From: Clostridia bacterium
Lineage (GTDB): Bacteria; Bacillota; Clostridia; TANB77; CAG-508
Direction of reading: 5' to 3'
NCBI GenBank assembly: GCA_022794055.1
Contig: JAAWEA010000026.1
Span: 1-61,637 of the forward strand
Length of the DNA stretch: 61,637 nucleotides
Shown here: positions 48,996 through 54,584 of the stretch, piece after piece
How positions within the stretch are numbered: position 1 is the first letter of the stretch
How the letters are laid out: every line of letters begins with the position of its first letter
Notes under the pieces: model-generated
Databases searched by the model: none
Told to the model about the DNA's origin: nothing
What the model saw: only the letters and a program-made list of their open reading frames with translations
Translations under genes and position numbers: made by a program

Positions 48996-49388
48996 TTAAT
49001 TACTATCCCTTCTAAAAAATTCTTTTATTCTTTTAATAAATTTTAGAAATATATTTTTTTCAGTTTCAATAACTACTATATTTTCTTGTTTACTCAAACA
49101 AGCATTATTATTTCTTTTAAATACTTCTTCTGCATTGTATTGTTCTAACTTCTGCCTTTCTATAGCTTCTTGTGTATCTTTTAATTTTCTTATTTGCTTA
49201 TTTATCTCTACTATTTCATCATGATTTTCTTGAAATAATTGCTTAAACTGTAACAATCTTTCATCATTTGGATTTATTTTACTTTGTTTAATTTGTTCTA
49301 GTTTATCACATAATTTTTTATATTCTTTTGTTTTTAAGTCAAGTTCCATAGTTAATCCCACAAGCTTGGTCTGGTTCAAATTCATCAT
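48996..49388 (-). CDS. Hypothetical coiled-coil protein (130 aa)
   Basis: K/E/Q-rich heptad-like sequence. The start overlaps the upstream stop (ATGA). I recognise no family. Confidence 0.45.
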   Translation of the reverse strand: MMNLNQTKLVGLTMELDLKTKEYKKLCDKLEQIKQSKINPNDERLLQFKQLFQENHDEIVEINKQIRKLKDTQEAIERQKLEQYNAEEVFKRNNNACLSKQENIVVIETEKNIFLKFIKRIKEFFRRDSN

Positions 49389-52247
49389 CTATCATAACCT
49401 CCATTTTCTATTTCTTTTTCTATTCTTTGATAAAGAACGTACTGTTGATTATTCATCGCATCTTGAAAACTATATTCAGATGGTACTGTTAAATTTGAAG
49501 TTGCTTTCTTAAATCTTTCTACTTGCTTTTTTAATCTATTATACCCCATACCAATATTAATCTGCTGTAATGGTTTGTTAGGATTTTGTTTGTCATATTC
49601 TTCAATAAATGCCTTTAATCCTCTCTGAAATGCTTTAAATATCATTTCTCTATCTTGTTCTTCTGAACTTGTTTCTTCTACATTATATCTTCCCGAAGAA
49701 CTCTCATGATGTCTGTACTTTTCATTAAGTTCAAAATCATTTATTACTCCATATCCTTTATCTTTATTCATGTACATAGTTCCTTTTGACACTATATCCC
49801 CTTTAGAATCTCTAACAACTAGATTTTGTACATCTGGAGAAATAACACTTGACCTTGCAATATCTTTTCCATAAAATTGACTTGTTATAGTTCCACAACA
49901 ACTTACAAATAGTCCCATTATACTATTATGAGGGTCACTTTTGCTAAGCCATTCATAAGTAAACTGTTTATCATATAACTCTTCTATCATCTGTCTTCCA
50001 TCAATTAATTCTTGTTCTGTTTGATTTTTTATTCTTTCTATATTTTCTAAAATTGTTTCTTCTCTTATTGGTTTTTCTAATATGTGTTCTGGAACATTAG
50101 TGGTTTTCGCCTTTTGTCTTAACTTACTTGCTACATCAAAAGTATGTTGCGAAAGTCCTTTACTTCCAAAAACTTGAGCAATATCCGAATTTTCTTTGGT
50201 TACTCCTACATATTTATTACTCAAATAAAACTTTTTTAAAGCTTCCTCCCAAGGAACTTTTATTGGTTTTCCCTTATCATTTAGAGTTTCTCTATGTGAT
50301 TTTGCCTCTCCAAAATTCGTCATGACTTTTATAAACATACCTGGATAATCTCTTTCCAAATTTAAAATCATCTCTAAATTTTCTAAAGTAACTTTTTTGG
50401 AAACAGTATTTCCATTCTCATCTTTTTCTTTTTTGACACTTTCTTTAGATATAAATTCTAAAAATTCTTTATCTGGTCTACTATCTAGTGGCATTGAATC
50501 AAATAATCCATGATATTTACCGTAATCTCATAACATCTGTTTTTAATAATTTTGCAAGTAATGAAGATGCCTTTTGAGCCAAAAGCACTTGTGTTTCTTT
50601 TCCTTTTTTATTTAACATTTTTTCAGCTGAAAAACATCCTAAATTAGTTGCAAATTTAAAAAAGTCTAATCTTTCTTCCTCTGGAAAGTCCAATAGCATA
50701 TCATTTATTTCTGGAAACTCACTTTTAAAAAATCTAAAATCGCTATTTTCAAAAAATAACTTTGTATTTCCACTTTCAACTAATGCTAGTCCATATACAT
50801 AAGGTATACTAAACTTATTCTTATTTAAAATTTCAGAAAATTTAATTACTTCCTCTAATTTATCATTTTGTACTAATATGCTATAGTCAAATCCATCAAA
50901 AGATTTTGATATTTTATCAAGTTCTATTACATCTTCATATTCTTCTTTATTTCTAGGTAATTCTTGTGAAAATATTAGTTCTCCTGTTGGTGCTTTATAT
51001 GAATATTTAAAATTTAATCCCTCAAAGGCTCTTTTTCCAATAGATTTTACTTTAGAATGTATAATTAATTTTTTTAATGTTATACAGCCATTAAATGCAT
51101 CATCTGGTATTTCTGTTTCACTGTCTGGAATTGCATATTCTATCATTGACTGTCTTGACAAGTTAAATGCTTCATTTAAAAAATTACATTCTCCTGTAAA
51201 ATTTCCACCTCGACTTGCCCCAAAGCTTGGATTACCATTTTGAGTTATATTTCGCACATCAATTCCATTCAAAAAGCCTCTAGGGGTACTATTTTGCCAC
51301 ATTGTACTATTTTGGTCATGTTCATCTGGATAAAATGGAATATTAGAAATAATTGCCTCTTCTGCTATTAAATCAAAATATTTTGCTTTTCCATTTCCTT
51401 TTGGATTTATGCTTTTAGGCATTTCATCCCAATTTAGTATTTTAAATGAAATTGGCTCTATTTTTGTCCATCTTACAGTTCCTTCTTTTCCAGCCTCTAC
51501 TCCATCTGAATACTCCGTTTCCTCATCATTCGGGTATGATATAACACGAGCATATCTATTTCCTTGATATTCAAACTCTGGACTATGCTTTCCTGCATAG
51601 TCTTTATAATTCTCTTTTTGTCCATTACATGAATACCATCTCCCTGTACATGTAATATCTTCTTTTAGTTTTCCTCCATGATATAAAGTTTCCAAAGTTT
51701 GACTTAAATTTTCATTTACTTTTGTTTTTGTATATTCTCCAATTTGCAATGTATGATATACAATTTCACCATTTGTATCTTTTACTTCTTTTATGTTAAA
51801 TTCATCATTTTCATCTTTCAGTCTATCCTGTTTCTTTTTTGAAAACCTTTGCGCACTTCGTGCGGAGATATTAGATGGAAGATGATAATGCAAAGACGGG
51901 CACAGACCTAAATCCCTAGTAGAACAAGATCTACTATTCCAATCGCCATCGCCATAGACAGAGTTTACAAGTAAGCTATTAAAGGCGGAGCGCAGACAGA
52001 CATCTGTAGTCTGCTGACCTGTAAAGGTCCTATAGCTATTGTAGGTATAAGCATTATTCATTTTAGCATAATCAGTAGCAGAAGTTCTTCTCTCTTGATC
52101 AGTTTTTTGACCATCAAAAAGGTCATTATAACTTGCTAAATATATTAAATCTGTTGTGTTAAATTTTTTATTTACCATTTCCTGAGAGTCATCTGTATTT
52201 TCAATAGTAGTAGGTACAATCCTACTTCGTAAATCTACTCTTTTCAT
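49385..52247 (-). CDS. DGR target protein (about 955 aa if the 576-aa and 369-aa ORFs are joined by a +1 shift at in-frame CGG 50520-50522): N-terminal variable C-type-lectin-like (WLRS...GVRPAL-type) domain, BspA-like LRR, uncharacterised C-terminal part
   Basis: The VR lies at aa 84-117. A BspA-like LRR is indicated by FNGCITLKKLIIHSKVKSIGKRAFEG. Frame 0 ends ...TDVMRL-CGG-TAA. The +1 frame reads GKYHGLFDSMPLDSRPDKEF..., which is the next track ORF. No signal peptide is visible. Confidence 0.7.
51898..51998 (-). repeat. DGR variable repeat (VR)
   Basis: It is 101 nt, collinear with the TR at 53564-53664. There are 14 mismatches, every one at a TR adenine on the coding (minus) strand, and none elsewhere. 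Confidence 0.95.
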
Positions 52248-52316
52248 TTGTCCTCCTTTATTAAAACTATATATTATTTTGTATTATATCATAAAAAACA
52301 GAATTCACATATTTTT

Positions 52317-53664: not shown

Positions 53665-53738
53665 ACGAAGGACTAGGGGTGACGAACACACGTGCGATTA
53701 AAATCCTACCTTAATGAAAGCATTTCTGCATAACATCC

Positions 53739-54071
53739 TTATTGATTTCTTGAAGCATCACTTTTGCGCCAAGCTACTAATAAATTTATACAATCAGAAA
53801 GTTGCAATGATATTTGTTGATACTGTTTTTTTAGAATACATTGATTTTCTAATGCAAGAAATGACATATACCCCAATAGTTTTAATTTTAAAAAAGCCAT
53901 TCTTTGACATTCTCTTCTTTTTTCTTTATTTTTTACACTATCCATTTTTATTGAATTTGCTTCTATTAAATTTTCTACACAATCTAAACAATAATTTTGC
54001 ATTCTATTTATAAAAACCGCTCTAAATCTTTTTGGAGATTTTTCAGTAATAGTTATCACATAAGCAGTCAA
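53739..54071 (-). CDS. avd: DGR accessory variability determinant (Avd-like four-helix-bundle protein); N-terminus uncertain
   Basis: ...EKSPKRFRAVFINRMQNYCLDCVENLIEAN...LKLLGYMSFLALENQCILKKQYQQISLQLSDCINLLVAWRKS fits the Avd / 23S-rRNA-IVS protein pattern. The track start is a TTG. The frame stays open about 150 nt further upstream without a canonical start. Confidence 0.7.
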   Translation of the reverse strand: MTAYVITITEKSPKRFRAVFINRMQNYCLDCVENLIEANSIKMDSVKNKEKRRECQRMAFLKLKLLGYMSFLALENQCILKKQYQQISLQLSDCINLLVAWRKSDASRNQ

Positions 54072-54584
54072 CTTTTTTACTTTTGTTATTACTATAAGTT
54101 CACTTGAATCTGATGGTATTTTAGTATCTTTGTCTATATCTGGATGTTCTAATGCTATTTCATCTTCATTCTTGTACTTAGTTTTTTGTGCTTGTGAAAC
54201 TGCTTTTGATATTTCTATTTATCTTCTTTTGATTCTTTGTTTATATTTGCATTTGAAACCATATTGGGCATTCTTAAGCCATTTCTTCTACCAATGTTAT
54301 CACTCATTGTTTCCTCCATACTTTACAAATATAACACAAACAATTTCATTTCTAAACATTTTTTTATTAAATCTTATTTTTATCACTATTTACAATAATA
54401 AAAAATCTATATGACATTCCTATAGACTATAATAGCTTTATTTTTTCATAAATCCTAATACATTTTGAACATTGTAATTTGTGTAGTACCAAAATTAACC
54501 ACACACCTCCTTGGCTTACCCTCTGTTTATTGCAGTAATAGTTTAAAAAAATAAATTTAACTTTTTCGTTAAACTTCAATAGTT

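Follow-up and report, generated by a model that had tools for sequence, protein, structure and literature searches.

We describe a diversity-generating retroelement (DGR) in a 61,637-nt stretch of DNA from a Clostridia bacterium (contig JAAWEA010000026.1; the whole stretch is called the window below). All DGR-related genes lie on the minus strand, where the accessory gene avd, a template repeat (TR) and a reverse transcriptase (RT) gene precede a target gene whose variable repeat (VR) falls in an N-terminal DUF6273 domain. The data are best explained by a chromosomal avd-TR-RT DGR of a low-GC gut Clostridia that diversifies this DUF6273 target and is now inactive or strongly impaired in the present strain, a reading to which we assign a probability of roughly 85%. 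Identification of the element as a DGR, put forward in an original prediction, is borne out by a DGR-clade RT, a TR/VR divergence confined to adenines, an Avd homologue, strain variation limited to VR, a TR polymorphism copied to VR, conservation of the cis elements and covariation in the spacer RNA. The same prediction called the element complete, a description that has to be given up: avd is interrupted by a 1-nt deletion, absent from six near-identical relatives and repeated in another assembly (L068; related loci are designated L and target proteins P). As a DGR the element is an ordinary member of a well-known system; its target is unusual, being of a known but uncommon N-terminal DUF6273 type. 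The parts of the cassette needed for the argument are as follows.

54215..54307, minus strand: 5′ fragment of avd; ATG at 54307, GGAGGA ribosome-binding site, 30 codons and then TAG
54218-54220, minus strand: avd frameshift site; AAA here, AAAA in six near-identical relatives
53739..54217, minus strand: downstream portion of avd, out of frame with its start; contains the Avd four-helix domain (residues 71-182 in the intact protein)
53664-53563, minus strand: TR; 102 nt, non-coding, between avd and RT
53562-53340, minus strand: TR-to-RT spacer; 223 nt, structured part of the DGR RNA, with its first 11 nt resembling IMH* (the TR counterpart of the initiation of mutagenic homing site, IMH)
53339..52317, minus strand: DGR reverse transcriptase; 340 amino acids, GTG start, RVT_1 match at 2e-18
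51998-51897, minus strand: VR; 102 nt, in frame, codons 84-117 of the open reading frame (ORF) 52247..50517
51851..51896, minus strand: target-recognition region 3′ of VR; IMH-like stretch and hairpin

Adenine-specific divergence and conserved cis elements

TR and VR align collinearly and without gaps over 102 nt, one base more than the 101 nt originally given. They differ at 14 positions, every one of them a TR adenine (A>C seven times, A>T six times, A>G once). TR is made up of 33 A, 30 T, 25 G and 14 C; 14 randomly placed differences would all coincide with A with a probability of 1.4e-8. Realignment uncovered no mismatch at any other base, and the claim that divergence is restricted to adenines (14 of 33 being affected) stands. 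A separate repeat search returned the same pair as the longest direct repeat of the region. VR lies within the coding part of the target, and the non-coding TR sits beside the RT gene; read in the frame of VR, TR contains two TAA, seven AAT and one AAC triplets, in keeping with what had been noted before. The mutable codons of VR number 21 (amino acids 89-113), corresponding to about 1.4e16 possible peptides. The window holds no second VR, the best other match to the 69 non-A positions of TR reaching 34/69. The adenine bias recurs in thirteen related DGR-bearing loci, where 222 mismatches fall at A and 50 at other bases, the latter nearly all in an 11-nt extension resembling IMH/IMH*.

The RT carries the motifs LPIGNQTSQWFG and YVRYMDDLILV. 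The DGR hallmarks named in the original prediction were both located within them: IGNQTSQ at 52787-52767, which conforms to the motif-4 pattern [I/L]GxxxSQ, and YMDD at 52691-52680, which conforms to YxDD. The closest solved structure is the DGR RT of Bordetella phage BPP-1 (bRT, 8ub7; E 1.6e-41), with the SQ motif and YMDD aligned, and this match places the protein in the DGR clade; RT structures of group II introns, retrons and Drt3a match at 2e-9 or worse. More than 4,700 relatives were found at E < 1e-30, and the few named ones are from Clostridia-type metagenome-assembled genomes (MAGs).

Directional cis elements are present by sequence on the 3′ side of VR. Both repeats end in the GC-rich segment GGTCTGTGCCCG. 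The 11 nt that follow read TCTTTGCATTA after VR and ATTTGCCTTTA after TR, a difference fixed across loci that is the pattern expected for IMH versus IMH*. A hairpin (CGCAC-GAA-GTGCG, within 51865-51851) lies 32 nt past the VR end. The DNA from the end of VR through the hairpin is exactly conserved in all DGR-bearing loci, even at about 62% protein identity, and the encoded ISARSA motif is wholly missing from most DGR-less homologues. Mean pairwise DNA identity in the 62-nt segment after VR amounts to 89% among DGR-bearing loci and 52% among DGR-less ones, with flanking coding DNA at 74-77%. Folded as DNA, the post-VR region gives no overall stability signal (z 0.58); the local hairpin is supported by conservation and not by energy. 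Three DGR-less loci (L024, L034 and L035) retain the exact VR-end, IMH-like and hairpin DNA; they may be targeted from a distance by a DGR at another site in the genome, or may have been orphaned recently.

The spacer between TR and RT folds into seven helices conserved in eight loci, as judged with RNAalifold and pair counts. Its 56 pairs are formed in 97.3% of cells, against 43-58% in slid controls; 18 pairs show compensatory changes, a result matched by 0 of 500 shuffles. An invariant 8-bp helix joins UUUGCCUU (53561-53554, just 3′ of TR) to AAGGCAAA (53484-53477), 70 nt downstream, and another pairs GGCUACC (53430-53424) with GGUAGCC (53375-53369). A permissive-threshold Rfam search of 48900-54700 found no RNA family. 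Just before the ribosome-binding site of RT, the 3′ arm of the GGCUACC/GGUAGCC helix and a T-run form a terminator-like hairpin (53366-53378); the T-run is not conserved among relatives. A promoter scan returned no more sites than in shuffled sequence.

By homology to the BPP-1 system, minus-strand transcription would yield an RNA comprising avd, TR, the 223-nt structured spacer and RT. The RT, together with Avd, would bind the TR-spacer RNA and make TR cDNA in which adenines are unfaithfully copied; the cDNA would then replace VR, guided by the GC-rich VR end, the IMH-like stretch and the downstream hairpin. The product would be a soluble protein diversified at the mutable codons of its N-terminal DUF6273 domain, continuing into a beta domain, a leucine-rich repeat (LRR) unit and helices and, after a +1 frameshift at a rare CGG, into a GNAT-like domain.

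Lesions in avd and variation among strains

Most, though not all, DGRs have an intact Avd; here the gene is frameshifted. At 54223-54215 the window reads GATAAATAG, as opposed to GATAAAATAG in the six near-identical relatives. With the extra A restored, avd becomes a continuous gene of 189 amino acids, comparable to the intact Avd of relatives (186-189 amino acids), in which the counterpart of the 5′ fragment is in frame with the rest. The ORF reported upstream of TR therefore does include an Avd homologue, but it is not continuous from 54307, where the frame stops after 30 codons. Matches to the Avd domain (NCBIfam DivGenRetAVD, 2.2e-8; Pfam bAvd, 1.4e-3) are both sub-threshold; intact homologues cover the full model, positions 1-104. 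The lesion is unlikely to be an assembly error because L068, identical to the window at every one of 9,986 nt, reproduces it. A different lesion is found in a sister lineage (L018-L021), where a TCA>TAA change creates a nonsense codon at avd codon 25 (window position 54231), ten bases upstream of the A-run. Both the nonsense codon and the frameshift (codon 31) fall within a 70-amino acid N-terminal extension that is not part of ordinary Avd proteins.

Comparison of related strains indicates that the element has worked in nature, since near-identical strains vary mostly in VR at positions of TR adenines. Among target homologues with 95-97% identity, nearly all differences fall in residues 89-112. 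Over 5.6 kb, six loci (L018-L023) share about 99% of their DNA sequence with the window; each shows about 40-90 real differences, 17-23 of which are in the 102-nt VR, and 26 of the 29 variable VR positions in this set correspond to TR adenines. Position 53648 of TR is A in the window and L022, and C in L018-L021 and L023; VR has C exactly where TR does, and we therefore conclude that sequence has passed from TR to VR.

In a cluster of target proteins from a sister lineage (185 members at 90% identity), VR is unique in nearly every one of twelve full-length aligned members. Four target proteins (P0002, P0003, P0005 and P0006) represent four VR alleles on an identical backbone, with 7-12 residues differing in VR and none elsewhere; the only avd visible among them, that of L022, is intact. 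In the lineage with the nonsense codon, P0004 is identical on 8 contigs, and the codon was present in all four examined (L018-L021, from different samples). P0004, P0523 and P0524 share one VR; P0523 differs from P0004 at three residues outside VR and at none inside. The frameshift allele of the window occurs with a single VR in three assemblies, allele and VR being 100% identical in L068 and L069. This parallel between the state of avd and the variability of VR is suggestive, not decisive.

On the strength of the avd frameshift, the DGR is probably inactive or strongly impaired in this strain. The opposite view, that it is still fully active, would have Avd made from the internal TTG at 54071 or a GTG, restored by ribosomal or transcriptional slippage on the A-run or supplied in trans, or would make Avd dispensable. 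It is compatible with the intact state of RT, TR, spacer, VR and IMH/hairpin, with the location of both lesions in the N-terminal extension outside the Avd domain, and with the fact that about 29% of known DGRs have no accessory genes (PMC5758913). We nevertheless consider it unlikely: no ATG, GTG or TTG occurs between the lesion and TTG 54071, and initiation there would give a 110-amino acid ORF in which ~10 positions at the start of the Avd model are missing; the window shows no further avd or RT; and the two lineages with a disrupted avd have unvarying VRs, in contrast to the intact lineage, where VR varies. A more radical alternative, in which the repeats are a drifted duplicated gene fragment and the RT belongs to an unrelated retroelement (a group II intron, retron or defence RT), could invoke RT matches to group II, Drt3a, retron and UG-type models. 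These matches are all far under the curated cut-offs, to be set against the E value of 1.6e-41 for the DGR RT structure, and Rfam shows neither intron RNA nor any other family. Strains, moreover, vary in VR only, and mismatches confined to A (P 1.4e-8), with the same bias in thirteen other loci, refute the duplication outright; its probability is negligible.

Several considerations weigh against our interpretation of a DGR with a DUF6273 target that has worked and has since been impaired. The Avd scores (34-42 bits) remain well short of the curated cut-off of 80, and with avd broken in the window present activity of the element is doubtful. VR variation was judged from assembled sequences; only a few lineages, whose samples may be related, tie it to the state of avd, and the identical VRs of L068 and L069 may be one strain resampled. 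Finally, whole-chain Foldseek comparison of the target with the PDB gives no significant C-type-lectin match, and LRR matches that are weak.

The target gene and its conserved CGG junction

Downstream of RT, the target gene appears to be divided between two frames and is followed by a third conserved ORF.

50517..52247, minus strand: target gene, frame-0 part; 576 amino acids, DUF6273, linker, beta domain, LRR and helices
50517..50522, minus strand: candidate programmed +1 frameshift site; rare CGG, then TAA
49385..50521, minus strand: target gene, +1-frame part (ORF2); open from GGT at 50521, first ATG at 50494, 369-amino acid ORF
48996..49388, minus strand: orf130; conserved 130-amino acid coiled-coil-like partner with its own GGAGG, overlapping the ORF2 stop by ATGA

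The AlphaFold2 model of the target (61-sequence alignment; predicted local distance difference test, pLDDT, 89.7) comprises an N-terminal domain (amino acids 1-135), a disordered linker, a beta-rich domain, one BspA-type LRR unit (amino acids ~360-415), which has LRR matches in the PDB, and a helical region. VR is carried on beta strands of the N-terminal domain in this model. The domain matches Pfam DUF6273 at 26.8 bits (cut-off 23.5), VR falling on the last part of the profile; in BFVD it is similar to phage DUF6273 proteins, with probability up to 0.97. DUF6273 has been equated with the C-type-lectin fold, and targets with an N-terminal VR, named tentaclins, are rare (PMC10743442). Hydropathy analysis detected neither signal peptide nor membrane helix in target, ORF2 or orf130, and the target is apparently a soluble, cytoplasmic protein. 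Pfam NTPase, kinase and protease domains were found neither in the window target nor in nine distant relatives. One Clostridia MAG carries six tandem paralogues of the ~360-amino acid N-terminal part (DUF6273 plus beta domain; L014:2613-10536), with no RT detected in the locus.

ORF2 is modelled as a helical region and, in its C-terminal half, an alpha/beta domain (AlphaFold2 pLDDT 85) for which Foldseek returns, at probability ~1, the GNAT acyltransferase structures 3lod, GCN5/PCAF and SpeG (E 6e-4 to 1e-2; TM score on target 0.4-0.56). The C-terminal half may thus be described as GNAT-like in predicted fold; no GNAT match was obtained at the sequence level in Pfam, NCBIfam or PADLOC, nor in the PDB with the family profile. 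Searched with an ORF2 profile, a set of 1.84 billion representatives yields 620 relatives. The majority are single proteins, 750-1,370 amino acids long, in which the ORF2 homology is C-terminal, preceded by DUF6273 plus LRR or by long LRR_5 arrays; none of 95 full-length family members has a signal-peptide-like N-terminus. These form an undescribed family of signal-less proteins in which a variable binding module is fused to a GNAT-like module. Target, ORF2 and orf130 co-occur as a trio in L001-L011, L018-L025 and other loci, with avd-TR-RT directly upstream in about half of those that could be assessed. In L024 the trio adjoins a serine recombinase, a Mob_Pre relaxase and a PemK toxin; in L025 the entire cassette is inserted between housekeeping genes.

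The frame-0 part of the target ends in ATG AGA TTA CGG TAA A. Skipping one base at this junction leads to L-(G/R)-KYHGLFDSMPL in the +1 frame, and homologues of ~950 amino acids read through in frame as ...MKL-GKYHGLFDSMPL.... An additional C just before a GGN glycine codon gives rise to the CGG. Comparison of 47 junctions taken from independent assemblies shows Leu-CGG with an identical +1 offset in 40, extending to homologues with about 50% protein identity, and Leu-GGA, in frame, in the remaining 7. The site and its offset are thus conserved, the stretch before the presumed ORF2 start is under coding constraint (see below), and CGG qualifies as a slow-to-decode codon, occurring in 2 of the 15,205 codons of the window (2 of 465 for Arg), one of them at the junction. 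We regard the conserved junction as a candidate programmed +1 ribosomal frameshift that would make target and ORF2 one gene. The original prediction had included 49385-50494 in the element; this was right, as the ORF appears to be the continuation of the target gene, reached only via the +1 frame change.

Other routes between the frames were considered. Slippage by re-pairing in the ribosomal P site is unlikely because the preceding Leu codon varies. Transcriptional slippage would require a homopolymer at the junction, where there is none; ribosomal hopping is at odds with the variation of the take-off Leu codon and with the conservation, as protein, of the skipped GKYHG codons. An assembly error is excluded by the presence of the split in dozens of independent assemblies.

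It is also conceivable that the 576- and 369-amino acid ORFs are separate genes, the second being reached by re-initiation at ATG 50494, or that the second is a decaying pseudogene. Most gene callers do report two ORFs, the ATG lies 22 nt past the stop in most loci, and the trans-frame protein is a predicted one. Yet Leu-CGG and the +1 offset in 40 of 47 loci speak against separate genes, as does the rarity of CGG, and the codon after CGG, TAA or TAG in most loci, is CAA, TCA or AAA in three. The 27 nt before the ATG encode GKYHGLFDS, and minor alleles there are distributed 22/14/41 over positions 1/2/3 of the +1-frame codons, an excess of third-position substitutions. In L004, L007 and L052, Leu replaces Met at the presumed ORF2 start. 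No Shine-Dalgarno sequence precedes ATG 50494, as opposed to avd, RT, target and orf130, which all have one. In-frame homologues show Leu-Gly-Lys-Tyr-His at the junction, and most distant relatives are single proteins of ~900 amino acids. Taken together these data make the two-gene arrangement quite unlikely, and favor a single gene with a +1 shift.

The closest precedents for the junction are the Ty3-type and glass-sponge mitochondrial sites. Ty3 shifts +1 at a rare codon, and +1 sites of glass-sponge mitochondria are at rare CGG/UGG immediately 5′ of GGA (PMC5009743). The likeness lies in the extra nucleotide before a GGN glycine codon that produces a rare CGG; the present junction differs in being in a bacterial gene, in having a stop after CGG in most members, in the manner of prfB, and in being known from sequence alone.

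Genomic setting and relation to known systems

The host of the element is the bacterial chromosome of a low-GC gut Clostridia bacterium, not a phage. The window has a GC content of ~26% and contains the housekeeping genes murE, mraY, ftsW, murG, addB, rnc, yabG and holB and those for PFOR subunits and signal peptidase; MAGs of uncultured Clostridia from gut and rumen are the source of the related loci. Near-identity searches of phage and plasmid collections with the 5-kb cassette gave no match, and a conserved spacer motif was sought in viral contigs and not found there; therefore nothing indicates a phage-borne DGR lineage. PADLOC has no defence-system model matching target or ORF2, and its RT matches are generic.

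The cassette is flanked by serine-recombinase genes (one intact, one split) and glycosyltransferase genes, amid very large dockerin- or cohesin-bearing proteins. The intact recombinase gene (56095-57633) encodes 512 amino acids. Two other large serine-recombinase genes are split into two ORFs each, at 54585-55902 (179 and 256 amino acids) and 28894-30559 (196 and 382 amino acids, with a 74-nt overlap); they could be pseudogenes or further frameshifts, and the split at 54585-55902 is found in every close relative. Downstream of orf130 are two glycosyltransferase genes (46782-48994), replaced by a Cu/Zn superoxide dismutase gene in L022 and L066, which are otherwise ~98% identical; this exchange marks the flank of the cassette as a variable region. 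The dockerin/cohesin cluster (31190-39163, 40001-40942, 42034-46692 and 58048-61248) includes a 2,657-amino acid protein with a dockerin and an M26 IgA-peptidase-like region, a 313-amino acid cohesin plus dockerin protein, a 1,552-amino acid NPCBM/F5_F8-type-C/dockerin protein and a 1,066-amino acid M26-like/GLUG protein. This composition suggests a cellulosome-like surface assembly directed at host glycans or IgA. A 268-amino acid ORF with an IS200-like Y1 transposase domain (17376-18182) lies among the housekeeping genes.

The gene order avd-TR-RT-target is as originally described. It had been thought less common; it is in fact a variant of the common architecture B1, in which the position of the target relative to the avd-TR-RT core is variable (PMC5758913). 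With the prototype DGR of Bordetella phage BPP-1 (mtd-avd-TR-brt; bRT-Avd-RNA structure 8ub7 and related entries) the element has several features in common: the core avd-TR-RT, an adenine-specific transfer from TR to VR, an IMH-like stretch that follows a GC-rich VR end and is unlike its TR counterpart, a hairpin after VR and a structured TR-RT spacer RNA. It differs in being chromosomal in Clostridia rather than in a phage, with the target downstream of RT; in placing VR in the N-terminal domain of a long signal-less protein and not at the C-terminus of a tail-fibre protein; in the 70-amino acid extension and frameshift of Avd; and in the in-frame TAA codons of TR.

Few targets have VR in the 5′ part of their gene; the arrangement is already on record for tentaclins, which are DGR targets of phages whose variable domain, of the DUF6273/C-lec type, is N-terminal (PMC10743442). 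The window target corresponds to the first half of that definition only. It is not a tentaclin because it has no Ig domains: Ig, Fn3 and Big Pfam matches and a C-terminal Ig consensus are lacking, their place being taken by the beta domain, LRR, helices and GNAT-like domain, and the gene resides in a cellular chromosome or mobilisable island instead of a phage. Cyanobacterial regulatory targets (PMC7517822) and diversifying conflict systems (PMC7159879) appear to resemble it as multi-domain, apparently intracellular targets of cellular DGRs, with no export signal and a hypervariable binding domain joined to an enzyme-like domain. The present target is distinguished by its N-terminal variable domain, a GNAT-like candidate effector, a C-terminal half that needs a +1 frameshift, and the lack of NTPase, kinase or protease domains by Pfam.

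As a DGR the element adds little, since thousands are known in gut metagenomes. The most interesting aspects, all beyond the original prediction, are the natural avd knock-outs, the binding-plus-GNAT-like family and the conserved +1 frameshift. The strain set amounts to a natural experiment, with two independent avd lesions and frozen VRs on one side and VR-only variation in an avd-intact lineage on the other, and bears on the need for Avd and its N-terminal extension in cellular DGRs. The signal-less family points to an intracellular role for a gut-bacterial DGR, and the deeply conserved +1 split at a nearly unused CGG is a clean, testable candidate for rare-codon programmed frameshifting in bacteria. 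Tentatively, and with the odds against it, we propose that what the DGR varies is the recognition end of a cytoplasmic sensor-effector protein, one that gut Clostridia carry on mobilisable islands. Such a protein would combine a hypervariable DUF6273 binding module (an LRR array in relatives) with a conserved helical/GNAT-like module, plausibly for conflict with phages or mobile elements, and the CGG frameshift would determine how much of a short form, limited to binding, is made relative to a long one containing the GNAT-like domain. If true, DNA-level hypermutation and translational frameshifting would be joined in one gene.

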